Source: Squalus acanthias (taxonomy: Eukaryota). From it: a stretch of 64,000 bases of DNA. Positions 9,301 to 57,599 of this stretch are shown here, piece by piece. The stretch lies in assembly GCA_030390025.1 (NCBI GenBank), contig CM059432.1:86182001-86246000 (forward strand), read 5' to 3'. Under the pieces are notes generated by a model. The model saw only the letters and a program-made list of their open reading frames with translations, did no database searches and was not told the DNA's origin. The number at the start of each line of letters is the position of its first letter. The stretch's first letter is position 1. A program made the position numbers and the translations under genes.

Positions 9301-9771
9301 CATATTTAGGCTGGTTTCATTTCTTGTAGATCCTTTAATTTTAACTTTTTACCATTATTCCCTGCTTTCACCTTATTCGCTAATGCGCTATTACTGTTAA
9401 ACTCTCTGTCCCTTCCTGTCACACTCTGCTTACCTTTACCCAAATCGCTACACTGCTCCATTGCCTTGACTTTTCTCTTTAGATTTCTAAATTTCCCCTC
9501 ACCTGACCCCTCCCCCCCCCTTTTTAGTTTAAAGCCCTATCTACAGCCCCAGTTATTCGATTCGCCAGGACACTGGTCCTGGCCTGGTTTAAGTGGAGCC
9601 CATCTCAACGGAACAGCTCCTTCTTTCCCCAGTACTGGTGCCAGTGCCCCATGATTCGAAACCCCTTCCTTCCACACCACTCTTTGAGCCACGCATTTAA
9701 CTCCCTGATCTGCTTGTCCCTATGCCAACTTGCGCGTGGCTCAGGTAACAATCCAGATATTATTACCTTTG
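6365..9771 (-). mobile_element. CR1 LINE (end of ORF1, linker, degenerate EN-RT ORF2, 3' tail); chimeric at ~9333
   Basis: Minus ORFs give ORF1 esterase end (SKVIISGLLPEPRA), APE endonuclease (DREGKRGGGVAVLI), RT and C-terminal fragments, with the CR1 tail at ~6370-6480. 6370-9333 matches 30577-33008, while 9333-9550 matches 54581-54800. Confidence 0.92.
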
Positions 9772-10410
9772 AGGAACAGCACCGTATTTTTCTATTAGGC
9801 ACTCTGCAGCTTTCTGGCCTTAAGATCAACTTCAATAACTTCAGACCTAACTATAGCTCCTGATTTTCTCTGCGGCAGGAAGTGCTAGCGATATGGGATG
9901 GGTATGCCGTCATTTCCCAGGGGGGTGGTGGGGTGAAAGAGAGAGAACAGATTGGTGCTGGGGGTCGAGACCCTCCATCAGATGGCCATGCTCTCAGGGT
10001 GGTTTTCAATCTTGATGTTGGCCTGTTTTTTCTTTTCCCAAGCTCCTGGTCCACTGGAGCCTGTCAGTTTTTCGTGCTTTGATTTCTACCTGCCTCATCC
10101 CCCACCTCCTTAGCTATTCATATGTTCTCCGTATCTTGTAAATGTCTTTAACTTCTTGATTTCACTCATTGTGCTCCCTGTTGTCTCATGCTAATATCAT
10201 TACTACCATTTAGTCATCCCCAGTTTTCCACTTAAGCACTTTACAGGTTATTCCATTTCTTTTACCGTGTGTGTGTTTTTTCCTCTCTCCCTTCCCTTTA
10301 TTCTGTTCCTTTTTTAAATGTTTTTCATCTGTAATATCCTCTAGTTTTGACAAAGGGTCCACCCTGAAATGTTAACTCCTCTGTTCTCTCCACAGATGCT
10401 GTCTAATATG
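9772..10410 (+). mobile_element. Penelope-like element, 3' part (end of GIY-YIG ORF and 3' terminal repeat)
   Basis: EEQHRIFLLGTLQLSGLKINFNNFR continues the peptide broken at 6362 (E..xI..LxTLxPxGLN motif of Penelope endonucleases). It ends in the terminal sequence also seen at 47690-47822. Confidence 0.75.
10343..10377 (+). ncRNA. Degenerate minimal hammerhead ribozyme motif in a Penelope terminal repeat
   Basis: agt-tttgacaa-AGGGT-cc-ACCCT-gaaatgtta-act: decayed CUGANGA box, helix II, GAAA box and palindromic helix III. The core is mutated. Confidence 0.5.
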
Positions 10411-10478
10411 CCAGTTAAACAACAGCTCCTAAGTTCAAGTTATTAAATTTCAAATGGCTAATGTGATTAATGGTTACT

Positions 10479-10633
10479 TCAGCCAAGGTTTTGGATCGTT
10501 TCCCGTTTCCATTTAACCAGTTGCGCCCCATCTAATGGGTAATCTGTGGCATCGAGAACATTTTCCTTCATTTTTTGGTCTGTTGTAAGGCAGTGGTTTA
10601 CTGTGCTTTGTTGGTAAATACTGCCATCTGCTG
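10479..10633 (-). CDS. Possible host-gene coding exon (terminal?), product unknown
   Basis: Non-repetitive-looking sequence. Acceptor ttatag|, phase-1 open frame ADGSIYQQSTVNHCLTTDQKMKENVLDATDYPLDGAQLVKWKRETIQNLG*, phase-compatible with exon 39467-39606. The pyrimidine tract is weak. Confidence 0.25.
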
Positions 10634-11069
10634 CTATAAGACATCTGCAACAGTTTCCTAAGGAAGAGCACATTATAGAATAGAACATGCATTTAATACC
10701 CAATTATACATACTATAGGTTCCTGATTACAACAACGCCATGAGGGGAAGGCACTACATTTAGACAAGGTGAGGCACTGGCTGGCTATACTTCTCACAAA
10801 GGAAAAGGTGATTGCTGTGTGCACTTCAATACACTCAGTCTCTCACTGTCTCTATTGTTTTGCACAGATCCTGAAAGCCTCCTGTCTTCAATCTTCTTCA
10901 CCGTTTTTCAAACTTACAGCAATGAATCCTCATTAGTAAAAGCTTTCAAGTTTTAATGTTTTCTCATCTGCATGAAACACATTTTTTCACTTACCATTCC
11001 CTCTTCTAACATGGGCTTCCTAAATGGCACTTCTCAGTGTGCAATAACCCTCATCCCTGATTCAGTTCA

Positions 11070-11625
11070 TACAGGAGAAAGCAGCTCACAATCAAAGGTA
11101 GCACTTGGCAACAGGAGGAGAGGAAGCTTCCATGAGGGATCTCATCCACTTTGAGGAGTAGGCCAACTCCATACAAAAAATAAGTGCTGGAGGTTGTAGG
11201 AGATGGAGAAGCGGGAGTCCCAGCAAAGGGCTTGTATCCTAATGCGCCTTCCAGAACACTGCAATATAACAACCTATCAGAAGGATTCTCACACAATCTT
11301 TCCAGCAGTAGCAGAACAATGTGAAATGCTTGGCCATCTCACATTAGTATTACCATTATAAGCTCCTTTTTGTCACTCTGTCTGTTTGTGTTTTTTCACA
11401 GAATCTTTTCAGATTTCCAAAGCCAGCCCCTCCCAGGAATAGCACACTTAGCACCACATCACTGCACTTACCCCATCCACTCACAAGTTCAGCTACATCT
11501 ACCCCAGAAGGTTTAAATAGACAGCAGGAGGACAGCACATGTGGTGAGTCACAAGCAAGGTGGACAGGAACAAGTGGAGGAAGAGCGCAGGGTTCCTTCA
11601 CCAGAGGGTGGGGTCACCTCCCTCC
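11070..11625 (+). pseudogene. Old relic of a Harbinger Myb/SANT gene (exon 2-3 region)
   Basis: Shares catgtggtgagtcac and flanking similarity with 44900-45070. A KVA..NRR...FEE-like segment resembles exon 2 at 44536. Confidence 0.5.
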
Positions 11626-11631
11626 TCAGTT

Positions 11632-11755
11632 GTTCCCACATTACAACAGTGACTACACTCCAAAAATACTTCATTGGCTGTAAAGCGCTTTGAGATGTCC
11701 GGTGGTCGTGAAAGGTGCTACATAAATGTTAGTCTTTCTTTCTTTCTTTCTTTCT
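11632..11755 (+). mobile_element. 3' tail of an L2-tailed SINE (Deu-domain/SacSINE1-like) ending in (CTTT)n
   Basis: cattacaacagtgactacact..aaa.tacttcattggctgtaaagcgcttt...gtgaaaggtgcta; the same tail occurs inverted at ~40295-40385 and degenerate at ~14600-14745 and ~23800-24015. Confidence 0.7.
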
Positions 11756-11830
11756 TGTGTGATCACGATCTCCGTGGCTTAGATTATAAGAGGAGGATGA
11801 TTTCTGAGCACAAGAGGTTGTGAAGGTCAT

Positions 11831-14460
11831 TCCCCTAGTCCACCAAGCCAAACTTCCCCTAAGGTTCGCCCCTGCCCTAGCCCTGAACTCGCATCTTTCT
11901 CTAGTTTCTCTCCTATTTCCCCTCAAGTCCTCTCTGAGCTCATCTTGTCCATGAGACCTACCTCCTGCTCCCTCGACCCTACTGAACTGCTGACCACCTA
12001 ATTTCCCTTGCTGGTTCCCACGTTAACTGAGATTATTAACGTTTCCCTCTCCTCAGGTACTGTCCCATTCCCCTTCAAATCTGCCGTTATCACCCACCTC
12101 CTCAAAAAAACCACCTTTGACGTCTCTGTCCTTGCAAACTACCACCTCATCTCCAACCCACCTTTCCTCTCCAAAGTCCTTGAACATGTTGTTGCCTCCC
12201 AAATCTGTGCCCATCTCTCCCGCAACTCCACGTTTGAACCCTTCCAATCAGGTTTCTGCCCCTGCCATAGCACTGAAACGGCCCTGATCAAAGTCACAAA
12301 TGACATCCTATGTAACTGGCTGTGGTAAACTATCCCTCCTCATTCTTCTCGACCTGTTTGCAGCCTTTGACACGGTTGACCACGCCATCCTCCTCCAACG
12401 CCTCTCCTCTGTCATCCAGCTTTGTGGGACTGCCCTCACTGGTTCTAATCCTATCTATCCAGTTGTAGCCAGAGAATCGCCTGCAATGGCTTCTCTTCCC
12501 ACTCCCGCATTGTTACCTTTGGAGTCCCACAAGGATCTATCCATGGCCCCCTCCTATTTCTTATCTACATGCTGCCACTCGGCGACATCATCCGAAATCA
12601 CGATGTCAGGTTTCACATGTAGCTGCGACACCCAGCTCTAACTCTCCACCACCTCTCTCAACCCCTCCACTGCCTCTGATTTGTCATGCTGCTGGTCCGA
12701 CATGCAGTCTTGGATGAGCAGAAATTTCCTCCAACTAAATATTGGGCAGACTGATGCCATTGGCCGGAATTTTGCCGGCGCTCAGGGGGCAGGTTTGAAG
12801 GCGGGATATCCGGCAAAATCGCAAAGATTGATAGCGGGTCAGAAACCCGCTGTCAACCCGCCTCCAATCAATCTTCCCAAGTGTCGGGTCCCCATTTTGC
12901 GCATGGACCCAACACCTAGCGGTGGGAAGAGGATTATAGCCACTTAACTGCTTGTTAACAGGTTGTTAACAGGCAGTTAAGAGGCTTTTTGCAATTTTGA
13001 CAGTCCGGACACCACGCCAGGTAAGTGTGGCGTGCTGTGGGTCTACTGTAATGTTTCTGCATTGATGACAGCTGCAGAAGTGGTGTGAAGGATCCAATGG
13101 TGCACTGGTGAGTTTCAGAGGTAAGATAATGTTGGGAAAATCATTTCTAATGCATTTACACTTTTCTGTAGGTAACAAGTATTGATTTGTATGTGTAGTC
13201 CCACCTCATTGGGAGAACCTCTCTCACCAGTGACAGATCGCTTCTGTAACCTCACCTGCAGCTGCCATCTGTTCTAGCCTAAGGAGGGAGTCACGGGAGA
13301 GCCTGTGTGCAAGAGCTCACCTTTGTACAGTGATTGCCAGTGTTTGTAGCACCTCAATGCTGTCAAACACTGAGAAATCAGCTGTCAAAAAAAAATGTGC
13401 ATGGCCCCTTTAAGAAAACCGGCAGATGACACGTCATCAACTGATGTCATCTGACACCGGCTTCCTCTTAATTGGCCGGCAAGCCCACAGGGCGGGCTTA
13501 ACAAGGCCAATTGATGCAAAATCATGTTTGTGGGTCTGATGTCGTTGGGGGCGGGACTGGAACCTGGAAGGCAGCTGTCCCGCACCCAAGCTGCCTCGAG
13601 CAGAAAAATTGCAGCCATTGTCTTCGGTCCCTGCCACAAACTCTGTTCCTTAGCCACCAATTCCATCCCTCTCCCTGCCTCCTGTCTCAGACTGAACCAG
13701 ACCATTCACAGCATTGGAATCCTATTTGACCCTTAGATGAGCTTCCAACCATATATCCGCTTTATCACCAAGACGACCTACTTCCACCTCCATAACATTG
13801 CCCGACTCCGCTCTTGCCTCAGCTCATCTGATGCAGAAACCTTCATCCATGCCTTTGTTACCTCTAGATTTGACTATTTCATTGCTCTCCTGGCCAGCCT
13901 CCCATCTTCCACCCAAAATTCTGCTGCCCACATCCTAATTCGCACCAAGTTCTGTTCACCCATCACCCCTGTGCTCGCTGACCTACATTGGCTCCGGGTC
14001 CGGCAATATGTCGATTTTAAAATGCTCATCCTTGTTCTCAAATCCATCCATATCCTCGCAAACCCCCACCCCCACCGCCCCGCCGCCCCGCCCCCCCAGC
14101 CCCACCCCTCACCATCTCTAACATTCTTCAGCCCTACAAGCCTTCGAGATCTTGGCGCTCCTCCAATTCTGGTTTCTTGATCATCCCCGATTTTCATGGC
14201 TCCACCATTGGTGGCCGTACCTTCAGCTGCCTAGACCCGAAGCTGTGGAATTCCCTCCCTACACCTCTCTTCCTCTCTACTGCTCTCACCTCATTTAAGA
14301 CACTCCTTAAAACCTACTTCTTTGACCAAGCTTTTGGTCACCTGTCCTAATATCTCCTATGTGGCTTGGTGTCAAATTTTGTTTGTTAATGCTCCTGTGA
14401 AGCACCCTTGGATGTTTTACTATGTTAAATGCACTATATAAATACAAGTTGTTGTTGTTG
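11831..14460 (+). mobile_element. L2 LINE, 5'-truncated, degenerate ORF2, split by the element at 12762-13616
   Basis: NYHLISNPPFLSKVLE, QSGF..HSTETALIKVTND, LLDLFAAFDTVDH, FVTSRFDY, LHWL motifs. The tail ends ctatataaatacaag(ttg)n. Confidence 0.9.
12762..13616. mobile_element. Non-autonomous Harbinger-type TIR element
   Basis: Ends GGCCGGAATTTTGC / GAAAAATTGCAGCC with a perfect ATT duplication. Removal restores the L2 sequence gccATTgtcttcggtccc. Confidence 0.85.
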
Positions 14461-14744
14461 TCATTGGGGGTCTGCCCAGAAACCTCCAACAAATGACAAC
14501 TGAGGGTTGGCTTGTAGAATCTGCAGACATCCTTGAATAACGTGACAATTCTAGAGCCACCTGCAATGCAGGCCCCTGCCAGAAAGACCACAATGACAGG
14601 TCAGACAGTTGGCTTGCTGTTTGTGAGATCTTGCTGTACACATATTAGCTGCCAATTTTGCCTATATAACAATGACTGTACTTTAAGAATAATTCATAGT
14701 TGCAGAATACTTTGGGACATCTTGGGGATGTCATAAAGACCTAT

Positions 14745-16123
14745 AAGAACGTAAGAACATAAGAATTAGGCGCAGGGGTAGGCCATATGGCCCCTCGAGC
14801 CTGCTCCGCCATTCAGTAAGATCATGGCTGATCTTCGAACTCAATTCCACTTTCCCATCCAACCCCATATCCCTTGATTCCCTGAGAGTCCAAAAATCTA
14901 TCTATCTCAGCCTTGAATATACTCAACAACTGAGCATCCACACTCCTTTGGGGTAGAAAATTCCAAAGATACACAAACCTCTGAGTGAAGAAATTCCTCC
15001 TTATCTCAGTCTTAAATGGCTGACCCCTTATCCTGAGCCTATGCCCCCTAGTTCTAGACTCTCCAGCCAGGGGAAACAACCTCTCAGCATCTACCCTGTC
15101 AATCCCCTCAGAATCTTATATGTTTCAATGTGATCACCTCTTATTCTTCTAAACTCCAGAGAGTATAGGCCCATTCTACTCAATATTTCCTCATAGGACA
15201 ACCCTCTCATCCCAGGGATCAATCTAGTGAACCTTCGTTGCACCGCCTCTAAGGCAAGTATGTCCTTCCTCAGATAAGGAGACCAAAACTGTGCACAGTA
15301 CTCCAGGTGTGGTCTCACCAAAGCCCTGTACAAATGTAGCAAGACTTCCTTACTCTTGTACTCCAACCCCCTTGCAACAAAGACCAACATGCCATTTTCC
15401 TTCCTAATTGCTTGCTGTACCTGCATGCTAACTTTTTATGTTTCCTGTACGAGGACACCTAAATCTCTCTGAACACCAACATTTGAAAGTTTCTCACCAT
15501 TTAAAAAATAATCTGTTTTTCTATTCTTCCTACCAAAGTGAATAACCTCACATTTCCTCACATTATACTCCATCTGCCACCTTATTGCCCACTCACTTAG
15601 CCTGTCTATATCTCTTTGCAGGCTCTTTGAGTCCTCCTCACAGCTTACTTTCCCACCTAGCTTTGTATCATCAGCAAACTTGGATACATTACACGCGGTC
15701 CCCTCATCTAAGTCATTGATATAGATTGTAAATAGCTGAGGCCTAAGCACTGATCCTTGCGGTACCCCACTAGTTACAGCCTGCCAACCTGAAAATGACC
15801 TGTTTATCCCTACTCTCTGTTTTCTGTCTGTTAACCAATCCTCTAACCGTGCAAATATGTTACCCCCAACCCCATGAGCCCTTATTATGTGTAGCAACCT
15901 TTTATATGGCACCTTATCGAATGCCTTTTGGATTTCCAAATATATTACATCCACTGGTTCTCCTTTATCTACCCTGCTAGTTACATCCTGAAAAAACTCT
16001 AATAAATTTGTTAAATACGATTTCCCTTTCATAAAACCATATTGACTCTGCCTAATCATATTATGATTTTCTAAGTGCCCTGTTACCACTTCCTTAATAA
16101 TGGATTCCAGCATTTTCCCGACT
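14745..16123 (-). mobile_element. CR1 LINE, 5'-truncated (RT and 3' tail)
   Basis: ORFs 15436..16227, 15091..15426 and 14822..15079 carry CR1 RT motifs. (acataaga)n tail at ~14745-14764. Confidence 0.93.
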
Positions 16124-16379
16124 ATAAAAACGCAAGTTTTATCTTTTCTCTTTTCGCTCTCTGACTCCTTGCAAGAGGGCTTGCAGCATGCAGGGATGAC
16201 AAACTGACTTTTCTCACTCAATAGCACCCAAATTTACAGAAATCTGATGAGTAATCATGTAGCTTTGATCTCCCAGTGCTATTTCAGGTGCTAAACTGGC
16301 CGATAGATTGCAGTTCAATGCTGATTTAGAGGATTAGTGCCTTTTTTCATTGGCTGGCCCACCTTGATTGTACATTTTT

Positions 16380-16812
16380 AGGAATGATACAAAAGCAATG
16401 GAAAAGGTGTAGGTAGCCTAGGATGTTAGTAGGGATGAGGGGTTACATCTATGAAGAGCAACTTGAGATGATGAAGCTGAAAAGGTCAAGTGGTGACCTG
16501 GGAGATTTTAAGATTATGAAGGGTTATGATAAGGTAAATGGTGGCGGATTGTTTCCACTGGTCGGTGAGTCGGTAACAAGATGACACAAGTTTAAGCTAA
16601 TTCCAAAAGGAATTAAAGGGGAGGGTGGCAAAATAAATATTTACACAGAGGGTTGTTAGAATGTGGTGTTATCTGCCATAATCTATCCATAAATTCTTTT
16701 CAAAGGCAATTAATTATTTGAAAACAAGGAATATTAAAGGATGTGGGGAGCAAGGAGGAGAGTAAGGTTAGACTGGGTGACTTGTATGGAGAAAAACATT
16801 CTATGATTCATA
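16380..16812 (+). mobile_element. Old CR1 3' fragment
   Basis: Degenerate ...aagattatgaagggttatgataaggta...tttacacagagggttgttagaatgtgg..., ending ttctatgattc. Confidence 0.65.
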
Positions 16813-17076
16813 AATCTGCATTTCTCCACGAGCCACCTAGTCTACTCTCACTCTCCTGATTGCTCCCCAAAGCTCTGATTCCCAGATTTAAAACTAGCAG
16901 CAGTAAGTTCTGCCAAAAAGTTTCAGTAACCTATAGTTTCACCATGGATAGCTCATCAACAGCAATGTTTAGGTTCATGTCATTGGAAATTGGGAAATAA
17001 AACATACTGGGACTATGCTGCCCTTTACTTCCCAAATATAAGATTTCTGTGCTGCAAAAGGTTCACCAATCACAAT

Positions 17077-20000
17077 AGCCCAAGATTTGCTGTCAAAATA
17101 ACGTCAAGATTAATAACTTTCGCCGCTATTTAAGTGCTAATGCCATAGAAACTTCAGGCGAGGGCAGTTATGCTATTAAACACAGAAATCGAGATGTTGC
17201 AGTCGGAGATGTGCCGCTCTGCCATTAGCATTGCGAAAACGGCATCTTGCTGTCTGGTTCCCCATTCAAATGTCTTGAGCGGTGTGAAGTTCCTGTACTA
17301 GTACGGTAGATACAAAGTAAACTTGCTACAGAAAGCTAAGTCAAGTCATTTCAAGTCTAATTACCCTTTTAATGACGTGATAAGTGTTAATTACTGCCAG
17401 TCAACCTCTCTGGCACTGAATTTAACTATTACAAATGTGGATTCTCATTCCTTCAGGTTTTAATTATTGTTGGAGATTTTTTTTTACTTTTTCTTTCTGT
17501 CTCTTTTTTCTCTCTCTCTTAATCCAATCTTTCTTTTAAAAACATAAGAAATAGGAGCAGGAGTAGGCCATTTGGCCCTTTGAGCCTGCTCTGCCATTCA
17601 ATGAGATCATGGCTGATCTTCTGCCTCAATTCCATTCACCGGCCTTATCGCCATATTCCTTGATGCCCTTACTAGTCAGAAATCTATAGACTTCTGTTTT
17701 GAATATACCCAATGACTGAGCCTCCACAACCCTCTGGGGTAGAGAATTCCAAAGATTCACCACCCTCTGTGTGAAGAAATTTCTTCTCATCTCAGTCCTG
17801 AATGGCCTACCCTTTATCCTGAGGCTGTGGCCCCTGGTTCTAGACTCCCCAGCCAAGGGAAACATTCTCCCAGCATCCACCCTATCAAGCCCTGTAATAA
17901 TTTTGTATGCTTCAATGAGATCCCTTCTCATTCTTCTGAATTCAAGAGAATACGGGCCTAGTTTACACAATCTCTTCTCATACGACAGTCCCGCCATCCC
18001 AGGAATCAATCTCGTGAACCTTCGTTGCACTCCCTCTATGGCAAGTATATCCTTCCTTAGGTAAGGAGACCAAAATTGTACACAGTACTCCAGGTGTGGT
18101 CTCACCAAGGCCCTATATAATTGGAGTAAGACTTCTTTACTCCTGTACTCAAATCCTCTTGTAATGAAGGCCAGCATACCATTTGCCTTCCTAATGGCTT
18201 GCTGCTACTGCACATTCCCTTTCAGTGACTCATGTACAAGGACACCCAGGTCCCTTTGAGCATCTGCATTCCCCAATCTTTCACCATTTAGGAAATACTC
18301 TGCCTTTCTGTTTTTTCTACCAAAGTGGATAACTTCACATTTATCCACATTATAATCCATCTGCCATGTTCTCACCCACTCACTGAGCCTGTCGAGATCC
18401 CCTTGAAGCCTCTTCACATCCTCTTCGCAACTGACACTGCCACCTAGCTTTGTGTCATCAGCAAATTTAGAAATGTTACATTTAGTCCCCTCATCCAAAT
18501 CATTGATATAGATTGTGAATAGCTGGGGCCCAAGCACCGATCCTTGCGGTACCCCACTAGTCACAGCCTACCATCCTGAAAAAGACCCGTTTATCCCTAC
18601 TCTTTGTTTTCTGTCTGTTAACCCATTCTCAATCCATGCTAGTATATTACCCCAATTCCATGTGCCCTAATTTTGTTCACCAACCTCTTGTGTGGGGCCT
18701 TATCGAAGTCCTTCTGAAAATCCAAATACACCACATCTACCCGTTCCCCTTTGTCTACTCCACTAGTTACATCCTCAAAGAACTCCAATAGCTTTGTCAA
18801 ACAGGACTTCCCTTTCATAAATCCATGTTGACTCTGCCCAATCTTACTATTAGTTTCTAAGTGCCCAGTTAAGCATCCTTTATAATAGATTCCAGCATTT
18901 TCCCAACTACTGATGTGAGGCTAACAGGTCTGTAGTTCCCCGTTTTCTCTCTCCCTCCTTTTTTAAATAGCGGGGTTACATTTGCTATCCTCCAATCTGC
19001 AGGAACCGTTCCAGAATCTATAGAATTTTGGAAGATGACAACCAATGCGTCCACTATCCCAATGGTCACCTCTTTCAAAACCCTAGGATGTAGGTCATCC
19101 AGTCCTTGAGATTTATCGACTTTTAGTCCCATTAATTTTGCTAGTACTGTATTTTTACTAATAATAATTTCTTTAAGTTCCTCATTCTCGCCACACCCTT
19201 GGTTTTCTCGTATTTCTGGGAGGTATTTTGTGTCTTCCTCCGTGAAGACAGAAACAAAGTATTTATTTAATTTCTCTGCCATTTCCTCATTCCCCATTAT
19301 AAATTCTCCCGTCTCTGACTGTAAAAGACCTACAATTACCTTCGCCAGTCTTTTCCTTTTCACATACCTATAGAAGCTTTTACAATCCGTTTTTATATTT
19401 TTCGCTAGTTTGTGCTCATATTCCATTTTCCCTTTCTTTATCAATTTATTGGTCCCCCTTTGCTGATTTCTAAAAAGATCCCAATCCTCAGGCTGACCGC
19501 TTTTTCTGGCAACTTTATAAGCTTCCTCCTTTGACTGAATACTAGCTTTAATTTCTTTTGTTAGCCATGGTTGGATCACTTTTCCTTTTGGGTTTTTATG
19601 CCCTAGAGGAATATATGTTTGTTGCAAATTATGCATTATTTCCTTGAATGTTAGCCATTGTATGTCCACCTTCATACCTTTTAATGTAGTCTCCCAATCT
19701 ACCATAGCCAACTTGTCCCTCATACCCTTGTAGTTTCCTCTGTTTAGATTGAAGACCTTAGTTTCAGATTGGACTACATCACTCTCAAACTTAATGTAAA
19801 ATTCAATCATATTATGGTCACTTGTCCCTAAAGGCCCCTTTACCACAAGATTATTGATTAGCCCTTTCTCATTACACAGTACCAGATCCAGAATAGCCTG
19901 TTCCCTGGTTGGTTCCTCCACATACTGATCCAGGAAACCATCTCGCATGCATTCCAAGAATTCGTCCTCCACACCATTAATGGTAACTTGATTTGCCCAG

Positions 20001-20360
20001 TCAATATGTAGATTAAAGTCCCCCATGATTACCGTATTGCCCCTGTTACATGCACTTCTAATCTCTTTATTTCTCTTTCTGTACCTGATTTGACAGTAAA
20101 TTCACCATTCTAAATTAAATTTTCCTCTCAGTCTTTATGCTGGTAATTTCACGATTCTTCAATCTGATTAGTTAAGGAGATACACAGTTGCTTGCTCTGT
20201 TCACTCAGGTCCCAGATGCCCTGTAGAGTTTGCCGTGCTATTTCCATCTTGCACTTCCAGCAACTTGCAGTGCAAAATATTGTTGACATTAAGTGGGCAG
20301 GGGAAAGTCTAACTAACAGCGGGCGCTGTTTGTTGGCCTGCCACTGCAATTTTTGGGCCC
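17077..20360. mobile_element. Non-autonomous Harbinger-type element (~760 bp) split by the CR1 at 17540-20065
   Basis: Ends AGCCCAAGATTTGC ... GCAATTTTTGGGCC(C). A pyrimidine tract continues on both sides of the CR1. No clean TSD. Confidence 0.55.
17540..20065 (-). mobile_element. Young CR1 LINE, 5'-truncated within the endonuclease
   Basis: Long ORFs 18869..20026, 18205..18564 and 17626..18177. Nearly identical to 33737-36270. Confidence 0.95.
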
Positions 20361-20805
20361 TAGTTAGGGAAATGTAATACACACCTACTTATAATTAAAT
20401 AAAATCCTGAAGCTCTAAAAGAAAAATCCTATTTTTCATTTTTTTCAAGTCGGCCATTGCTCATTCATGTGACATATCATTGTTGACGATAAATATAACC
20501 AAAAACTATCTAATTGACTGGTCCAACAAAATTTGTGTAGCCTCCCCTTACTACCATGTGCTTCTTACTTGTCTCCTGTCTCTTTTTAAGTGTTTGTCAT
20601 TTTGAACATTTTTTCAAACAATGCATAAATATTTGACTCTAGGATTGGTGCAACAGTGTGGTGGTAGCAGCACCCATTCTGCTAGAAAGCCATTGATGAA
20701 GATGTAATTGTCCTTCAGAACAAACTAATTTTCACAGTAGAATCAAGCACCTGGTCCATCTCATTGGGACAATGTACAAGCACTTTAGATCTTACAACTA
20801 CTAAG

Positions 20806-20948
20806 GGACAAGTGTCAGCTTGGATCAATTGGTAGTACTCTCACATCGGAGTCAGATGGTTGTGGAATCAAGCTCCATTATAGACTTGGACTGTCATTTC
20901 AGTGCAGTTCTGAGGGAATACTACATTGTTGGAACAGCTGTCTTTTGG
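20806..20948 (+). mobile_element. 5' (tRNA-derived) head of a Deu/SacSINE1-like SINE, degenerate
   Basis: gtcagcttggatcaattggtagtactctc..gagtcagatggttgtggaatcaagc: decayed A/B boxes followed by cagtgcagttctgaggga. Confidence 0.55.
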
Positions 20949-21204
20949 TTGGGGGGAGTGATTTTCTTGGGGTTAGTGCCCAAATAGTGCCTGGAAAATG
21001 GGTGCTTTCCACATGACAAATAGACATTAATCATTTGCCTCCATTCTGTGCCTGAAGAGGGCACAACAATGTAAATTGCATACAAATGATTGTCAGAGAC
21101 CTGTACACTCAGAGATCCTGCTCTAGCAATGGGTGCAGTTCAGGGTCAAACTGCTCCCAGAAAAACCTGTGCTACAGCTTCTAGAGCTGCCGTTTGAGCA
21201 TTAT

Positions 21205-26302: not shown

Positions 26303-29300
26303 TTTTTGTTATTCGTTCCTGGGATGTGGGCATCACTGGCAAGGCCAGCATTTATTGCCCATCTCTAATTGCCCTTGAGAAGGTGGTGGTGAGCCGCCTT
26401 CTTAAACCGCTGCAGTCTGTGTGGTGAAGGTATTCCCACAGTGCTATTGGGGAGGGAGTTCCAGGATTATGACCCAGCGACGATGAAGGAATGGTGATAT
26501 ACTTCCAAGTCAGGATGGTGTGTAACTTGGAGGGGAATTGCAGGTGATGGTGTTCCCATGCGCCTGCTGCCCTTGTCCTTCTATGTGGTAGAGGTCATGG
26601 GTTTGGGAGGTGCTGCCGAAGAAGCCTTGGCGAGTTGCTGCAGTGTATCTTGTAGATGGTACACACTGCAGCCACGGCGCACTGGTGGTGGAGGGAGTGA
26701 ATGTTTAAGGTGGTGGTTAGGGTGCCAATCAAGTGGGCTCCTTTGTCCTGGATGGTGTCGAACTTCTTGAGTGTTGTTGGAGCTGCACTCAGCCAGGCAA
26801 GTGGCGAGTATTCCATCACACTCCTGACTTGTGCCTTGTAGATGGTGGAAAGACTTTGGGGAGTCAGGAGGTGAGCCACTCGCCGCAGAATACCCAGTCT
26901 CTGACTTGCTCTTGTTGCCACAGTAATTTTCTGGTCAATGGTGACCCCCAGGATGTTGATAGTGGGGGATTCGGGGATGGTAATGCCGTTGAATATCAAG
27001 GGGCAGTGCTTAGATTATCTCTTGTTGGAGATAGTCATTGCATGGCACTTGTGTGGCGTGAATGTTACTTGCCACTTATCAGGCCAAGCCTGAATGTCTT
27101 CCAGATCTTGCTGCATGTGGGCATGGGCTGCTTCATTATCTGAGGAGTTGCGAATGGAACTGAACACTGTGCAATCATCAGCGAACATTCCCACTTCTGG
27201 CCTTATGATGGAGGGAAGGTCATTCATGAAGCAGCTGAAGATAGTTGAGCCTAGGACACTGCCCTGAGGAACTCCTGCAGCGATGTCCTGGGGCTGAGAT
27301 GATTGACCTCCAACAACCACAATCATCTTCCTTTGTGCTAGGAATGACTCTAACCAGTGGAGAGTTTTCCCCCGATTCCCATTGACTTCATTTTACTAGG
27401 ACTCCTTGATGCCACCATCGGTCAAATGCTGCCTTGATGTCAAGGGCAGTCACTCTCACCTCACCTCTGTGATTCAGCTCTTTTGTCCATTTTTGGACCA
27501 AGGCTGTAATCAGGTCTGGAGCCGAGTGGTCCTGCCAGAACCCAAACTGAGCATCGGTGAGCAGGTTATTGGTGAGTAAGTGCCGTTTAATAGCACTGTC
27601 AACGACACCTTCCATCACTTTGCTGATGATTGAGAGTAGACTAATGGGGCGGTAATTGGCCGGATTGGATTTGTCCTGCTTTTTGTGGACAGGACATACC
27701 TGGGCAGTTTTCCACATTGCCGGGTAGATGTCAGTGTTGTAGCTGTACTGGACCAGCTTGGCTAGAGGTGCAGCTAGTTCTGGAGCACAAGTCTTCAGCA
27801 TGACAGCCGGGATGTTGTTGGGGCCCATACCTTTGCTGCACCAGTGCGCTCAGCCGTTTCTTGATATCACATGGAGTGAATCGAATTGGCTGAAGACTGG
27901 CTTCTGTGATGGTGGGGACCTCAGGAGAAGGCCGTTGTGGATCATCCACTCGGCACTTCTGGCTGAAGATGGTTGCAAACGCTTCAGCCTTGTCTTTTGT
28001 ACTCGCATGCTGGGATCCGCCATCATTGAGGATGGGGATATTCATGGAGCCTCCTCCTCTCAGTTGTTTAATTGTCCACCACCTTTCACAACTGGATGTG
28101 TCAGGACTGCAGAGCTTTGATCTGATCCGTTGATTGTGGGATCGCTTAGCTCTGTCTATAGCATGTTGCTTTCGCTGTTTAGCATGCATGTAGTCCTGTG
28201 TTGCAGCTTCCCCAGGTTGGAACCTCATTTTTAGGTATGCCTGGTGCTGCTCCTGTCATGCTCTTCTGCACTCCTGATTGAGCCAGGGTTGGTCTCCTGA
28301 CTTAATGGTAATGGTAGAGTGAGGGATATGCCAGGCCATGAGGTCACAGATTGTGGAATACAATTCTGCTGCTGCTGATGGCCCACTGCGCCTCATGGAT
28401 GCCCAGTTTTGAGCTGCAAGATCTGTTCTGAATCTATCCCATTTAGTACAGTGGTAGTGCCACACAACTCAATGGAGGGTGTCCTCAGTGTGAAGATGGG
28501 ACTTCGTCTCCAGCAGTCCCTGCTACCAATGCTGTCATGGACAGATGCATCTACGTCAGGTAGATTGGTGAGGATGAGGTCAAGTAGGTTTTTTCCTTGT
28601 GTTGGTTCTCTCACCACCTGCCAAAGGCCCAGTCTGGTAGCTATGCCCTTCAGAACTTGACCAGCTCAGTCAGTAGTGGTGCTACCGAGCCACTCTTGGT
28701 GATGGATATTGAAGTCCCCCACCCAGAGTACATTCTGTGCCCTTGCTACCCTCAGTGCTCCTTCCAAGTGGTGTTCAACATGGAGGAGTACTGATTCATC
28801 AGCTGAGGGAGGGCGGTCGGTGGTAATCAGCAGGAGATTTCCTTGCCCATGCTTGACCTGAAGCTTGAGACTTTATGGAGACTGGAGTCAATGTTGTGTG
28901 CTCCCAGGGCCACTCCCTCCTGACTGTATACCACTGTGCCGCCACTTCTGGTGGGTCTGTCATGCCGGTGGGACAGGACATACCCAGGGATCGTGATGGA
29001 GGAGTCTGGGACATTGGCTGAAAGGTATGATTCTGTGATTATGACTATATCAGGCCGTTGCTTGACTAGTCTGTGGGACAGCTCTCTCAATTTTGGCACA
29101 AGTCCCCAGGTGTTAGTGAGGTGGACTTTGCAGGGTCAACTGGGCTGGGTGTGCCATTGTCGTGTCTGAAGCCAGTGCCTGGGTCGATGCCGGGTGGTCC
29201 ATCCGGTTTTATTCTTATTATTGATTTTCGTAGCACTTTGTTACAACTGAGTGGCTTTCTAAGCCATTTCAGAGGGCAGTTAAGAGTCAACCACATTGCT

Positions 29301-29658
29301 GTGGGTCTGGAGTCACATATAGGCCAGACCAGGTAAGGACGGCAGATTTCCTTCCCTAATCATAGGATCATAGAAATTTATGGCACAGAAGGAGGCCATT
29401 CGGCCCATCGTGTTTGCGCCGGTTGAAAAAGCGCTATCCAGCCTAATCCCACTTTCTCAGTTAACCAGATGGGCTTTTATGACAATCCGATGGTTTCATG
29501 GTCACCATTACTGATACGACTTTTTATTCCAGATTTATTTAATTAACTGAATTTAAATCCACCAGCTGCCATGGTGGGATTTAAACTCACGTCTCTGGAT
29601 CATTAGTCCAAGCCTCTGGATTACTAGTCCAGTAACGGAACCACTATGCTACCGGCCC
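26303..29658 (-). mobile_element. Apparently full-length ORF2-only LINE (CR1/L2 group, EN+RT) with a tRNA-like 5' head; degenerate
   Basis: Minus ORFs: PDIVIITESYL (EN), [56 protein letters not shown]. The head has an A box TAGCATAGTGG and a B-box-like GAGTTTAAATCC. A-rich tail at ~26303. Confidence 0.88.
29360..29456 (-). mobile_element. Short CR1 3' tail inserted in the LINE head
   Basis: cataggatcatagaaatttatggcacagaaggaggccattcggccc matches the reverse complement of the tail at 61810-61905. Confidence 0.75.
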
Positions 29659-29861
29659 TATAGTTGAGAGAGAAGTATCTGAGCGGGGTATCATCAACAC
29701 AAGAATGCCCAAGACCATAGAATGATTGAAATTTCAGCATAGAAGATGGTCATGCAGCCCTTGCGTCTGCCAGTGCCAACTCTGTATTGGAGCTGTCTAC
29801 TAAAATCCCATTTCCCTGCTCTTATCCTGTATCCTTAAATATTTCAGTCTATAAGTGTTTA

Positions 29862-32800
29862 TGTGACTGCTAGGGAGATGGGTAGCAGGGACTTAGGAGA
29901 GGTTGAGAAGGAGGTCCTGCAGACACTGGTCCTGTCCAACAGGTACGATGAACTCACTACCTGTGAGGACAAGAAGAAAGACTGTGGGGTGGACAGCCAC
30001 AATGCAGACCAAGGCACCGTGGCTCAGAAGGCTATCCAAGGGAGGGGAAGAGCAGAATAGAAATGTGGTCGTGATAGGGGATTCTATAATTAGGGGGATA
30101 GATAGTGTCCTCTGCAGCCATGAACAAGAATCCCAAAGGGTGTGTTGGGTAAGGGATATGGCGAGGTGCTGGAGAGGAATTTGGAAAGGGAAGGGGTAAA
30201 TCCAGTTGTCGTGGTCCATGTTGGAACAAACGACATAGGTAGGAACAGGGAGGAGGTCCTGCTGAAGGAGTATCAGGAGTTAGGAGCTAAATTAAAAAGC
30301 AGGACCTCGAGGGTAATAATCTCTGGATTATTGCCCGAGCCACGTGCAAATTGGCATAGAAGCAGACAGATCAGGAGAATTAACACATGGCTAAAGGGCT
30401 GGTGTGGGACAGAGGGGTTTCCTTTTCATGGGACACTGGCACCAGTACTGGGACAGGAAGGAGCTGTACCGATGGGACGGGCTCCAACTGAACCGGGATG
30501 GGACTCGTATCCTAGCGGAAAGGGTAAATAGGGAGGTGGCAAAGGCTTTAAACTAATAAGATGGGGGGGGGGGGAGGGATCTACAAGAAATGAAACCAGC
30601 CTAAATATAAACAAAACAGGAAAGGAGAGCATAGGAAAGAGTAAAGTAAGGGAGGACATTGATGGCCAGGGAATAAATAGAGTAATAGAACAGGAGAGTA
30701 AAAAGATGGTTAAAAATAAAGTGAAAGGAACTGCTATTAAAAATGAGTTAAACTGTCTGTACAGCAATGCGCACAGTGTCCGTAATAAAACAGGAGAGCT
30801 GGAGGCAATCATGCGTTGCGAGGAACCAGACATAGTAGGGATTACTGAGACACGGCTACAGAAAAATCAGGACTAGGAACTAAACATTGCAGGGTATAAC
30901 ATATTTAGAAAAGATAGAGAAGGAAAAAGGAGAGGTGGAGTAGCTGTACTTATTAGGGATAACATAATGGCAGTAGAAAAAGGTGACGCAGCTATCAGCA
31001 AGATAGAAACAGAATCCATGTGGTTAGAGATAAAAGACAATACAGGATCAATCACACTAATAGGGGTAGTCTACAGACCACCTAATAGTGGAAGGGAGGT
31101 GGAGGAAGAAATAGGCAAACAAATTAGGGAAATGAGTAAAAAACATAGAATAATAATCATGGGGGATTTCAACTATTCCAATATTAATTGGACAGAAGAG
31201 GTAGGTAAAGGGGATAGGGGAATGGAGTTCCTACAATGTGTACAGGACTCCTTTCTAACCCAATATGTGGAATAGGGCCACTAAGGGATGGACAGGATAA
31301 TACCACAGGCAACGATAGAGAGATGGCAGAAATATTAAATAATTACTTTGCTTCAGTATTTAACAGGGAGATAGAACATGTGGACATGACAATGGATCAT
31401 GAGATTAGTAATGAAATAAATGCATTTAAAATAAAAAGAGGAGATATATTAAATAAACTAATCAAACTGAAAGAGGAAAAAACACCTGGTCTGGACAGAT
31501 TATATCCGTGCATTTTAAAAGAATTTAGGGATGAGATAGCAGAGGCATTACTACACATATTTAATAATTTGTTAAAAAAGGTGTAGTGCCAGAGGACTGG
31601 TGGATAGCTAACGTAATACCTATATTTAAGAAGGGAGATAGAACATGTCCAGGGAACTATAGACCAGTCAGCTTAACATCAGTGGTAGGAAAAATAATGG
31701 AATCCCTACTAAAGGAGAAAATAGAAGAACATCTAGAAGCCAAAAATATAATAATGAAGAGTCAGCATGGATTTCAAAAGGGAAAGTCTTGCTTGACCAA
31801 CCTCATTGAATTTTTTGAAGAGGTAACAGAGAGAGTAGACAAGGGTAATGTAGTAGATGTAATTTATCTAGATTTTCAAAAGGCCTTCAATAAGGTCTAT
31901 CGAAGACTAGTCATAATAGACTATTGAATAAAGTCAGAGAATGCAGAGTCAGGGGACAAGAAGCAGATTGGATAGCTACTCACAGTGGCAGAAGGTGGGT
32001 AGTGGTGTTCCACAAGGATCAGTGCTGGGACCACTGGTGTTCACAATTTATATTAACAATTTAGACTTTGGAATAAAAAACACAATTTCTAAATTTGCGG
32101 ATGACACCAAATTGGGGGGCATAGTCAATACTGAGGAGGACTGCAACAAATTACAGGAGGACATTAATAAACTTGTAGAATGGGCATATAATTGGCAAAT
32201 GAATTTCAACACAGATAAATGTGAGGTATTACATTCGGTAGGAAGAATAGGGAGGTCACTTATTACTTGGAGGGGGTGAGTCTGGGTGGGGTAGAGGAGC
32301 AAGGAATCTTGGAGTACAAATACACAAATCATTGAAAGTAGCGACACAGGTTAACAAGGCCATAAAAAAAGCAAACCAATCACTAGGGTTTATTTCTAGA
32401 GGGATAGAATTGAAAAGTAGTGAAGTTATGCTAAACTTGTATCGAACCTTGGTTAGACCAGACTTGGAGTACTGCGTACAATTCTGGTCGCCATATTATA
32501 GAAAGGATACAGAGGCACTGGAGAGGGTGCAGAGAAGATTTACAAGAATGATACTAGAAATGCGAGGGTATACCTATCAGGAAAGGATGAATATGCTGGG
32601 TCTCTTTTCGCTTGAAAAAAGAAGGCTAATGGGTGACCTAATAGAGGTCTTTAAAATTATGACAGGTTTTGATAGAGTAGATCCACTTGTGGGAAAGAGA
32701 ATAACTAGAGGCCATCAATATAAGATAGTCACCAACAAATCAAATAGGGAATTCAGAAGAATCTTCTTTACCCAGAGGGTGGTGAGAATGTGGAACTTGC

Positions 32801-33008
32801 TACCACAGGGAGTAGTTGAGGCAAATAGTTTAGATTCATTTGAGGGGAGGCTTGATAAGCATATGAGGGAGAAGGGAATAGAGGGTTATGCTGATAGTGT
32901 TGGATGAGGAAAGATGGGAGGAGGCTCGAGTGAGTATAAACGCCAGCATAGACTGGTTGGGCTGAATGGCCTGTTTCTGTGCCGTATATCCTATGTAATC
33001 CTATGTAA
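29862..33008 (+). mobile_element. CR1 LINE with SGNH/GDSL-esterase ORF1 remnant and degenerate ORF2 (internal deletion at ~31272)
   Basis: VVIGDSIIRG, VVVHVGTND, EN and RT motifs, and a (cctatgtaat) tail. Same family as 6370-9333. Confidence 0.93.
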
Positions 33009-39606: not shown

Positions 39607-39810
39607 CTGAAAAAGAGGAAAATTTACCCTATTTTATTCACAAAAATGTTAAACAATTTATTGTAAATTCTCTTCACTCTAATTCATGCACTGTCAGTGA
39701 CATAGTAGCAACTAAGAAAACAAGCGTTAGCAACTGCTCTAGATGAGACAAACCATGATTATTTCTGGCTGTAAATGGACTGACCACTCAACCCACTTAT
39801 ATATGCCAAT

Positions 39811-40063
39811 GGGTACGGTAGCATAGTGGTTATGTTACTGAGGCCTGGATTAGTGATCTGGAGACGTGAGTTCAAAACCCACCACAGGCAGCTGGGGAAT
39901 TTAAATTTGTAAAAACCCATCTGGTTCACTCTGCCCTTTAGGGAAGGAAATCTGCTGTCCTTACCTTGTATGGCCTATATGAACTGCCCTCTGTGGCTCA
40001 CCACCACCTTCTCAAGGGCAATTAGCGATGCCTTGCCAGTGACGCCCACATCCCATAAAAAAA
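39811..40063 (+). mobile_element. Bipartite tRNA-headed SINE composed of the 5' head and 3' tail of the LINE at 26303-29658
   Basis: A box TAGCATAGTGG, B box GAGTTCAAAACC and tttagggaaggaaatctgc.gtccttacc (LINE head), joined to gctcaccaccaccttctcaagggcaattag..gcccacatccc (LINE tail) plus an A tract. Confidence 0.88.
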
Positions 40064-50800: not shown

Positions 50801-51054
50801 CCTGCACATCCCCGAATTTAATTGCTCCACCATTGGCGGCCGTGCCTTCAGTTGCTTAGGCTCTAAGCTCTGGAATTCCCTCCCTATATATCTTTACCTC
50901 TCTATTCGCCTTTAAGACGCTCCTTAAAACCTACCTCTTATATCAAGTTCAAATATGTGGCTCGGTGTCAAATTTTGTTTGATAACACTCCTCTGATGCG
51001 CCTTGGGACATTTTACTATGTTAAAGTGCTATATAAATGCAAGTTGTTGTTGTA
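47830..51054 (+). mobile_element. L2 LINE, degenerate, interrupted by three CR1 pieces (49411-50252, ~50278-50348, ~50418-50620)
   Basis: Collinear with the L2 at 11831-14460; (ttg)n tail at ~51043-51053. Confidence 0.88.
49411..50252 (-). mobile_element. CR1 3' fragment with an intact C-terminal ORF
   Basis: ORF 49495..50229 (KCEVIHFG...LVRPHLEYC...VVNLWNSLP) plus a tail similar to the HE1 SINE tail. Confidence 0.92.
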
Positions 51055-51056
51055 AC

Positions 51057-51557: not shown

Positions 51558-51691
51558 TCCTTAAAACCTACCTCTTTGACCAAGTTCAAATATGTGGCTC
51601 GGTGTCAAATTTTGTTTGATAACGCTCCTGTGATGCGCCTTGGGACATTTTATTATGTTAACGTGCTATATAAATACAAGTTGTTGTTGTA
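51555..51691 (+). repeat. Direct duplicate of the L2 tail at 50918-51054
   Basis: Same length, few substitutions, and the same internal deletion relative to the L2 tail at 14300-14460. Confidence 0.88.
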
Positions 51692-51693
51692 GG

Positions 51694-52060
51694 CCACCAT
51701 TGACCAGAAACTTAACTGGACCAGCCACATAAATACTGTGGCAACAAGAGCAGGTCAGAGGCTGGGTATTCTGCGGCGAGTGTCTCACCTCCTGACTCCC
51801 CAAAGCCTTTCCACCATCTACAAGGCACAAGTAAGGAGTGTGATGGAATACTCTCCACTTGCCTGGATGAGTGCAGCTCCAACAACAGTCAAGAAGCTCG
51901 ACAGCATCTAGGACAAAGCAGCCCACTTGATTGGCACCCCATCCATCACCTTAAACATTCATTCCCTCCACCACCAGTGCACTGTGGCTGCAGTATGTAC
52001 CATCTACATGATGCACTGCAGCAACTCGCCAAGGCTTCTTCAGAAGCACCTCCCAAACCC
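51694..52060 (+). mobile_element. Internal fragment of the tRNA-headed LINE family
   Basis: Reverse complement of ~55632-55995 and ~26599-26940. Confidence 0.88.
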
Positions 52061-54800: not shown

Positions 54801-54829
54801 TTGTGGTTGTGTGTTCTGTTCAACTACCT

Positions 54830-57599
54830 AATCTTGTGCTTCTCAGTGCAATCCCCATGGCTAGATCCTGGGAGATGGCTGGTAGCTGAGGTTCCCATAG
54901 AGGTTACAAGGTTTCAGGTGGCTTTTCATGCTAGTATAGCCTCCAGATGAGCCAGCTTTCAGTTACAGCACCTGCATTGCTGCAGGGCATCCTGGCTTGC
55001 TTTCTGCCTCCTGTGAAGTAATTTGGGAGGGGGTTCAGACTGATATGAATGTGTTGCCAAGGAGAGATATCATCAACCATTGTTAGGTCCAGCCAACATG
55101 TGCTCCTGGCCTCCATGTCACTGTGTTTGCTAATATGTGGTTGAGCAGACCTCATTGCTGCAATGACATCGCAAAAGCCTGTAACAAACTCACTATATTT
55201 CACTAAGCTCATCAGCTATCCTGTCCAATACAGAGGAAACGTTCCAATCCAAAGGCCTGAATGGCAGTAGTCTAAGCATTCAGAGATGATAAGGCAGCCA
55301 TACAGACCTCTGCCTTAAGAGGCTGTGCTGCAGATTTTTTTTTATTCGTTCCGGGATGTGGGCATCACTGGCAAAGCCAGCATTTATTGCCCATCCCTAA
55401 TTGCCCTTGAGAAGGTGATGGTGAGCCGCCTTCTTGAACCGCTGCAGTCCGTGTGGTGAAGGTACTTCCACAGTGCTGTAAGGGAGGGAGTTCCAGGAAT
55501 TTGACCCAGCGATGATGAAGGAACGGCAATATATTTCCAAGTCAAGATGGTGTGTAACTTGGAGGAGAACTTGCAGGTGATGGTGTTCCCATGTGCCTGC
55601 TGCCCTTATCCTTCTAGGTGGTAGAGGTCACGGGTTTGAGCGGTGCTGCTGAAGAAGCCTTGGCGAGTTGCTGCAGTGCATCTTATAGATGGTACATACT
55701 GCAGCCACGGTGCGCTGGTGGTGGAGGGAGTGAATGTTTAAGGTGATGGATCGGGTGCCAATCAAGCGGGCTGCTTTGTCCTAGATGCTGTCGAGCTTCT
55801 TGAGTGTTGTTGGAGCTGCACTCATCCAGGCAAGTGGAGAGTATTCCATCAACTCCTTACTTGTGCCTTGTAGATGGTGGAAAGGCTTTGGGGAGTCAGG
55901 AGGTGAGACACTCGCCACAGAATACCCAGCCTCTGACCTGCTCTTGTTGCCACAGTATTTATGTGGCTGGTCCAGTTAAGTTTCTGGTCAATGGTGACCC
56001 CCCAGGATGTTGATGGTGGGAGATTCGGCGATGGTAATGTCGTTGAATGTCAAGGGGAGGTGGTTAGACTCTCGCTTGATGGAGACAGTCATTGCCTGGC
56101 ACTTGTGTGGCACAAATGTTACTTGCCACGTATCAGCCCAAGCCTGAATGTCGTCCAGGTCTTGCTGCATGCGGGCATGGACTGCTTCATTTTCTGAACT
56201 GTTGCGATTGGAACTGAACACTGCGCAATCATCAGCAAACATCCCCACTTCTAACCTTATGAAGGAGGGAAGGTCATTGATGAAGTAGCTGAAGATGCTT
56301 GGGCCTAGGACAGATGGCCCTGGAGCTGCCATTCGTTCCAAGGGTAACTGCATGCTTTTGCTGTCATGTACAAGAACCCCACACGTGGATTGTGGAATCC
56401 TCAACACTTGCCGCCTTGTGTTGGAAGCTGCTAGGCATGTCACCCAATAACTCAAAGAATCTTGCACTCAAAAACATCCCTCTTTTAAAAGGTATATTCT
56501 GGAGATCAGGATCCCTGCCTGAAGATGGAGGCTATCTGACCCAGCAGTCAGGTACTTTCTGCTTCTCCTAGATCATCTCTACCTGCTCTTGCTCACTTGT
56601 ACTCTGTGCATTACCCTGTATCTTCCCTCAAACTATGTGAGTCCTTGGGGTGGTTGGAGCTGTGTTGCTTGCCAGAGTGACAATAAGATATCTGGTGAAG
56701 TGCTGGGCGAGGCCTGGGGAACACCCCAGTTTTTCTTCCATATCTGCAGATATAAAAAGAGAAAAACAGTTAGGAGCACATCCTCAGAACAACTTCTTGG
56801 ACAACAACTTTCATCAAACAGCTAGCTTGGAGCTTGCATGTCAGTACTTGTGCAAGGAAATAGGATGGAGTGCAAAGGAAGGCAACTGCTGCACAATGCC
56901 CTGACCTGGGCCATGCCATCTGCTTCCACATCTCTTGGCTCTTACCCCTCCTCCCAGACCTGAATTTGCAGGGATCACTCCTCAAATGGGATCAGACCAT
57001 GCAGTGTTGCTGTACAGCTCCAGTTGCAGCTATCTGCCTCTTGTTTGTGCACTACCTTCTTCTACAAAAGTAGAAGCAAGCAATGATTATCTGACAATGG
57101 CTGCATGGAATTTGCCAGCCCCAGATATATTCCACAGGGATTGTGAAAATAGAAATGTGCAGCAACGAGGTACTGGTTATGAAAGCAACTGATTGTGGTG
57201 TGTCCTGGGCATCATTCTACTGAAGGTGGTGGTATAGGCAAGGGAAGTGCTGGAAAATGTACAGTCATGGGAAGGTGAAGAAAAAGTAAAGGAATACAAG
57301 GCTAAGAAGAATGAGATCATGCTAGTTAATATAGTGCCTAAATATGAGCTGGCAATAAGTGCACCTACCTTGTCCCTCCTGGTGAGGTTATTGAATTCTC
57401 TGCAGCACTGCAGCTACATCCTCTGTACAGTACCACTGAGCATTATCACATTTGCCATGTTCTTCACCTGAATGTCTTGGACACCCTGCAGCCATAACTG
57501 AGAGAATGTTCCCTCATATGCTCCACTTCCTGGATCAAGATTTTGGTGTTTTCCTACCAAAGCAGGAGTCCTGCTTCTCCCACAAGTACTGCCAGACAT
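54830..57599 (-). pseudogene. Myb/SANT gene relic of the outer Harbinger (exon 1 57369-57599; exon 2 starts at 57061; remainder split by a LINE)
   Basis: MSGSTCGRSRTP...LIQEVE...LQCCREFNNLTRRDK|gtagg and acceptor ttttgtag|AAGAAGGTAGTGCAC (KKVxH); same intron positions as 44252/44536. Confidence 0.72.
55335..56312 (-). mobile_element. 5'-truncated copy of the tRNA-headed LINE
   Basis: Collinear with 26303-27258, including MFADD and the A-rich tail. Confidence 0.92.

Follow-up and report, generated by a model that had tools for sequence, protein, structure and literature searches.

The window analysed here, a stretch of 64,000 nucleotides of Squalus acanthias DNA, carries on its minus strand a full-length, dead retroelement (Table 1), which by its sequence is a decayed copy of an abundant elasmobranch Zenon LINE of the CR1 group. 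Relative to the family consensus, this copy has seven frameshifts and seven in-frame stops, and its broken EN+RT frame (minus strand, about 29240 to 26365) retains pieces of the Pfam domains Exo_endo_phos and RVT_1. Two consensuses built separately are 3311-3314 bases long with one frame of 973 codons, and the sampled family copies are 92-96% identical to the consensus. Genome candidates number 7563 for the UTR/EN junction and 5118 for the head, the best 40 of each being scored. Target-site duplications (7-10 bases, one mismatch) were seen at 3/12 copies compared with 16/132 mismatched flank pairs, which is no better than the control. Elsewhere in the window, positions 7001-21000 and 48001-55000 show long, strongly negative GC and AT skew and are probably minus-strand LINE copies.

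Table 1. Zenon-related features of the window, with strand and remarks
Feature	Position	Strand	Remarks
Full-length dead Zenon LINE copy	26303..29659	minus	94.3% identity to family consensus
tRNA-Ser-like head	29565..29659	minus	A box 29651-29641; B box 29588-29577
Head arms	29632-29616; 29611-29595	minus	anticodon-type arm; second, similar arm in variable-arm position
5' UTR core	29247..29478	minus	nearly invariant across sharks and rays; interrupted by insertion in window copy
95-base CR1 3'-tail insertion	29362..29456	minus	later event; absent from 29 other copies
Candidate non-AUG start signal	29232..29272	minus	hairpin 29272-29247 and in-frame codon 29234-29232; proposed from sequence, post hoc
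Single EN+RT frame	26365..29240	minus	consensus 973 codons: basic leader, APE endonuclease, reverse transcriptase
3' stem-loop (predicted)	26321..26365	minus	includes AATAAA 26356-26351; also in short derivatives
A-rich tail	26303..26320	minus	family-wide: variable T-run, then A-run
Short non-coding derivative	39810..40059	plus	head, partial UTR and 3' tail
Internal fragment of Zenon family	51725..52060	plus	92% over 336 bases
5'-truncated copy of Zenon family	55336..56312	minus	88% over 979 bases

Family identity and the tRNA-like head

The Zenon family has been published as an ORF1-less CR1-group LINE with a poly-A tail, all Zenons being described there as lacking ORF1 (PMC13343379, Stuart et al. 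2026). The elasmobranch consensuses in that paper (SquAca_Zenon-1 to -3 and CarCar_Zenon-1, ScyCan_Zenon-1, RhiTyp_Zenon-1 and HypSab_Zenon-1) share with the window family the absence of ORF1, the A-rich tail and the one EN+RT frame, and over the first 400 bases, compared by eye, SquAca_Zenon-1 (3314 bases) matches our younger-copy consensus (3314 bases) with no sequence difference. Canonical CR1 elements are recognised by an esterase ORF1, or by clustering with esterase-bearing lineages, and by the lack of a poly-A tail, whereas the window family has no ORF1 and is polyadenylated, with A4+ within the first 25 tail bases in 58/63 tails. Our RT tree, built from unnamed homologs only, did not place the clade; the best RT identity was 51%, and the host CR1 fell out of the tree, its match being too short. 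Related loci comprised 8 distant ones in metagenomes, none in viral contigs and 80 distant ones in genome contigs; loci L211-L290 are eukaryotic LINE frames on contigs of many GTDB genome bins, that is, animal host contamination.

The initial annotation treated the missing ORF1 as the oddity of this element, an emphasis that is not supported, as all Zenons lack ORF1, the headless ones included. ORF1 absence is old and known, and therefore not news. At the locus itself, the statement that there is no room for ORF1 upstream holds. An esterase frame at 30124-30531, some 500 bases beyond the leader, was considered as an upstream ORF1 and rejected, since it lies on the opposite strand and is part of a neighbouring CR1. 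This neighbour (29900-33005, plus strand) is a near-complete canonical CR1 with a piece of esterase ORF1 (30124-30531) and EN+RT pieces, and it serves below as T-run control. About 520 bases separate the head start (29659) from the endonuclease start (about 29135), and 95 of them are an insertion with matches both to the CR1 consensus end and to further CR1 tails found in the window; this accounts for the earlier, now confirmed count of about 430 bases of own sequence. The UTR core downstream of the head is conserved in the published consensuses of five species (by eye), with few differences in the runs of four organisms, and its predicted fold is no better than that of shuffles (z -0.9). A purine-rich strand of the UTR can pair with a pyrimidine-rich strand downstream (29478-29420 and 29361-29330, minus strand); by eye, one position of this pairing is A-T in one published consensus, G-T in another and G-C in a third.

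The leader does open with A and B boxes, as had been claimed; in the window copy, the B box has lost a conserved C present in the consensus. The resemblance to a tRNA is weak with generic tools and clear when the head is set against the tRNA-Ser(GCT) gene of the host. The Rfam tRNA model gives the window head 18.6 bits (E 0.62) and the heads tested 16.9-22.3 bits, all under the cut-off of 29, and ARAGORN called no tRNA in the window head. In alignments to host genes, the best match was to tRNA-Ser(GCT) (z 8.2, 500 shuffles), followed by Ser(AGA) (z 5.9-6.2), Ser(TGA) (4.6) and Cys and Lys (3.0-3.7); this ranking, which covered Ser, Lys and Cys genes only, leans towards Ser because the Ser genes were located with a pattern built from the head. 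An Rfam search for host tRNAs yielded Lys and Cys genes only among the 30 loci examined. The arm occupying the variable position looks like a second copy of the anticodon arm; in three other sharks, its sequence is different and still able to pair (by eye). Host tRNA genes also occur in long tandem arrays: tRNA-Ser(GCT) at C26:39.0-41.9 Mb, repeating roughly every 1623 bases (the genome has 391 matches to the search pattern), and tRNA-Lys(TTT) on C29, C2208, C1484 and C1516 with a period of about 1780 bases.

The tRNA-type head is an integral trait of full-length copies of the family. Among copies picked by the UTR/EN junction downstream of it, 17/29 start no more than 20 bases from the head start, 4/29 at 21-100 bases and 8/29 further in. 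Conversely, 20 of the 29 copies picked by the head continue into the endonuclease, while 7/29 pass from the UTR into the 3' tail at varying points and 2/29 have larger internal deletions. In a third sample, picked by the RT (40 of 150 candidates: 20 with long open frames and the 20 top-ranked), 16/40 copies reach the UTR, 7 of which begin at base 1-4, the remainder being 5'-truncated or rearranged; no alternative shared 5' end and no ORF1-type 5' end was found among these 40. A sequence common upstream of several copies was rejected as the family 5' end, as it is, judging by coordinates, a common repeat that received these copies at different positions.

The A box stands at the start of all seven published elasmobranch consensuses, which cover five species (four sharks and one ray; compared by eye over the first 400 bases), and the B box is intact in every elasmobranch consensus row except one ray row. 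The question of whether independent full-length copies begin at the head is thus answered by 17/29 downstream-picked copies and by the consensuses of five species. A one-off SINE-LINE juxtaposition is rejected, since the head moves with the element in three samplings and five species. Two hagfish rows and the coelacanth row show no such opening over the same 400 bases (by eye), which suggests that the head was acquired in the ancestor of sharks and rays; these three rows from outside the elasmobranchs may be incomplete at the 5' end. ARAGORN found no tRNA in 13 of the 80 related loci, a weak null because the program also misses the window head.

The main text of PMC13343379 contains neither "tRNA" nor "polymerase III", and "tRNA" is likewise absent from the part of its supplement text examined; the preprint of that paper has neither term. 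A whale shark preprint names CR1-Zenon once, in a passage that gives no structure. No description of a tRNA-headed or Pol III-driven autonomous LINE was found in the literature searched, which included few subscription papers and no Repbase or Dfam remarks.

Sense-strand T-runs and the 3' end

If the long element were transcribed by Pol III, its sense strand could be expected to be depleted of T-runs, the terminators of this polymerase. This predicted depletion is present in the consensus, which has no TTTT and a third of the expected TTT. Over the 3.3 kb of the sense strand, we counted 0 runs of T4+ and 7 runs of T3+, compared with 44 such runs of A, 49 of C and 37 of G. When the protein and the third-base use are kept constant, there are 5 runs of T3+ against 15.7 expected (P=0.0003) and 0 runs of T4+ against 2.9 expected (P=0.04), whereas the host CR1 control is normal (T3+ 21 against 21.1 expected; T4+ 6 against 5.5). 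Base shuffles produce zero T4 in 22/2000 cases. Permutation of the element's own codons does so in 192/2000 (P about 0.10), and because of this the zero alone is not decisive. Under the same codon permutation, the run deficit is found in T only (P=0.0055), with P of 0.2-0.7 for A, C and G. Run counts on the opposite strand of the consensus are normal, which speaks against avoidance of a double-stranded target site. The Phe content (1.85%) is lower than in any of the 54 long homologs that the first 60 hits contained (lowest 2.19%).

A frame of at least 600 codons is present in 62 of the 80 related loci, and none of these 62 frames is without T4. The TTT ratio is 0.26 in the window family compared with a lowest value of 0.51 among the 62 frames, a control set that is distant (33-44% RT identity), mostly T-richer and includes two frames (L212 and L272) with one T4 run each. 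As a side observation, L212, L272 and L260, which are related LINE frames from host DNA that was placed in microbial genome bins, have 1, 1 and 4 T4 runs against 4.0, 8.4 and 11.5 expected; these T4-poor LINEs may be independent cases.

The T-runs of the family are confined to its 3' end. T4+ occurs within the first 25 tail bases of 20/63 tails, compared with 2-10/63 in four flank windows, the flanks being the only control. A T-run of 1-10 bases precedes the A-run in 45/63 tails, namely those that can be parsed. Polyadenylated rodent SINEs are known for Pol III termination in U's, followed by adenylation. The order of T-run and A-run in Zenon tails fits such an ending; slippage or T-rich targets would also be possible sources. 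The predicted 3' stem-loop is likely to be the recognition site of the reverse transcriptase.

The start of the reading frame

In the consensus, the first in-frame Met is codon 287, past the endonuclease; of the AUGs within the first 480 bases, nine in all, each either opens a short frame or is out of frame. The window copy has one further AUG upstream of the endonuclease, which we rejected as a start, as it lies out of frame and arose from ACG by CpG decay. Before the first Met, the N/S ratio is 1.33 (12:9) for variants shared among copies and 3.49 (419:120) for singletons (p=0.036); after it, the corresponding values are 0.70 (19:27) and 2.79 (751:269; p=1e-5). Shared variants are thus poor in amino-acid changes before the Met as well, and therefore the front part is translated in source elements. 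The homolog P0002 begins with Met, followed by a similar basic leader, at the position where Zenon elements have a Thr or Ile codon.

A candidate signal for a non-AUG start is the hairpin that ends the UTR core together with an early codon of the frame (Table 1). Its loop has 7 bases and is anticodon-like, and the middle triplet is complementary to codon 3 of the frame. Neither this triplet nor the codon varies in the five consensuses or in the runs of four organisms, while the spacer does; invariance is no proof of pairing. One mismatch in the hairpin stem has become a pair through two distinct changes. A search of the 5' end of a clean copy found no Rfam IRES match up to E 10, and the UTR showed no Rfam ribozyme or IRES family.

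The intergenic IRES of dicistroviruses, as described in PMC3894237, starts translation without an AUG by means of a pseudoknot that mimics anticodon-codon pairing. The conserved Zenon UTR appears comparable in that it is similar in size and ends in a hairpin whose loop triplet would be able to pair with an early codon. In contrast to the viral case, the candidate Zenon pairing is invariant and hence uninformative as to covariation, and there is no Rfam IRES match; this is a resemblance only.

Transcription of the long element and its relation to SINEs

Taking these results together, we consider it probable, though by no means settled, that active Zenon forms are autonomous LINEs transcribed end to end by Pol III and translated from a non-AUG start. 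An ORF1-less Zenon would have acquired the tRNA-Ser-like head in the shark-ray ancestor, TFIIIC would bind the A and B boxes, and Pol III would initiate at the first base. Internal U-runs, including those in Phe codons, would have been purged as premature transcript ends; Pol III would stop at the 3' T-run, and an A tail would then be added to the RNA. The uncapped RNA would be translated via the conserved UTR, and the protein, bound to the 3' stem-loop, would copy this RNA in cis by target-primed reverse transcription, with short derivatives being moved in trans. As for the order of events, the head may have been acquired directly by the LINE, or else a SINE with a tRNA head, built on the two LINE ends by the route outlined in PMC5786205, may have recombined back onto it. 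A translated Pol III RNA of 3.3 kb is far outside the norm.

Pol III transcripts are reported to retrotranspose with ORF2p alone, whereas Pol II-driven Alu requires ORF1p (PMC2666806, Kroutter et al.). If Pol III RNAs need only ORF2p, as that work indicates, an ORF1-less LINE is a plausible host for a Pol III head. Conversely, Pol III is dispensable for life without ORF1, because headless Zenons lack ORF1 and a lepidopteran derivative has no Pol III promoter.

The foremost alternative, which we rate as unlikely, is that the head was captured from a tRNA-derived SINE and that Pol II transcribes the long element, using a promoter that lies internally, within the conserved UTR core; the A and B boxes would then serve the short derivatives or the RNA fold, and the low T content would have another cause. 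LINE promoters are normally internal Pol II promoters, the element has an AATAAA and an A tail, and across species the UTR core is better conserved than the head, all of which agrees with this account. The T-run data bear on it in two ways: the zero of T4 runs, at P about 0.10 under codon permutation, is compatible with Pol II, whereas a run depletion specific to T and to the sense strand over 3.3 kb, with a normal CR1 control, and the low Phe content are not predicted by it. In addition, a capped RNA would have to be scanned past nine upstream AUGs to a frame with no in-frame AUG for the endonuclease, and full-length copies begin at the tRNA's first bases.

A promoterless element is a still less probable alternative, and one in which we place little confidence. 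Here, Zenon would be read within host Pol II transcripts, and the tRNA-like fold would mark a cut, by RNase P or similar, that releases an uncapped 5' end. Ribozymes release defined 5' ends of some other ORF1-less LINEs. While the sharp 5' end of Zenon and the pairing of the D-type and variable-type arms, which appears kept despite sequence changes across species (by eye), suit such a cut, the acceptor and T stems needed by RNase P pair poorly and the predicted fold is no cloverleaf. An uncapped RNA would also account for the missing AUG; the T-run depletion is left unexplained, and no ribozyme family matches. Finally, we find it highly improbable that the head-bearing long form is an untranslated, giant non-autonomous SINE served by a separate AUG-bearing Zenon, for although there is no in-frame AUG before codon 287 and a rare partner could be missed when only the best candidates are scored, the 973-codon frame is open in two separately built consensuses, purifying selection acts both before and after the first Met, and no other 5' end occurs in the 40 RT-picked copies or the five species.

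A natural and abundant LINE transcribed by Pol III would, if our preferred reading is true, break the divide between SINEs and LINEs, which in the working definitions given in PMC4494074 are Pol III retroposons and Pol II coding elements, respectively. It would also present a long Pol III RNA as a working mRNA in a vertebrate, and internal deletion would offer a direct route to new SINEs for which no head addition is needed. The family makes the question of how ORF1-less LINEs start translation testable, and for retrotransposon tool building, a compact element of 3.3 kb that brings its own promoter and has no ORF1 would be of interest. In its most complete form, the element would be a self-sufficient SINE: a Pol III RNA of 3.3 kb with a captured tRNA-Ser promoter, terminated in a 3' U-run, given an A tail, translated with neither cap nor AUG by an IRES-like UTR whose anticodon-mimic hairpin pairs with the first codons of the frame, spread across sharks and rays since their common ancestor and budding ordinary SINEs by internal deletion. 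We put this complete version forward as a tentative and rather doubtful possibility.

Measured against SINE2 elements, the long element has the tRNA-derived head with A and B boxes and no internal oligo-T terminator. It is not short and non-coding, having a 973-codon frame under purifying selection; solely the short derivatives have that property. The build of these derivatives (tRNA head, LINE 5' UTR and LINE 3' end) is that of Bov-tA, SINE2-1_ACar and WALLSI2 as described in PMC5786205 and PMC4494074. The latter are non-coding, and in those descriptions their LINE partners are not given a head, whereas in sharks the coding parent carries it. The shark SINEs HE1 (V-SINE), SacSINE1 (DeuSINE) and the CmiSINEs (CORE) likewise have tRNA-derived heads with A and B boxes (PMC5499810, PMC3747384); compared by description, they have tails attributed to HER1, CR1-4_DR-like or L2-2 LINEs, the CmiSINE heads being traced to tRNA-Ala. 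The lepidopteran Zenon and its derivative Persaeus are described in PMC6740152 as likewise comprising an element of about 3.3 kb with a single frame, poly-A and short derivatives made of its two ends. Persaeus has the Zenon 5' end and, unlike the shark head, is reported there to have no tRNA homology and no Pol III promoter.

Derivatives made of head, UTR and tail recur at seven further loci (L033, L042, L044, L051, L055, L057 and L060), where the breakpoints differ. Runs X10 and X11 contain many contigs with a common breakpoint immediately upstream of the candidate start codon, and this points to a fixed SINE family in the organisms concerned.
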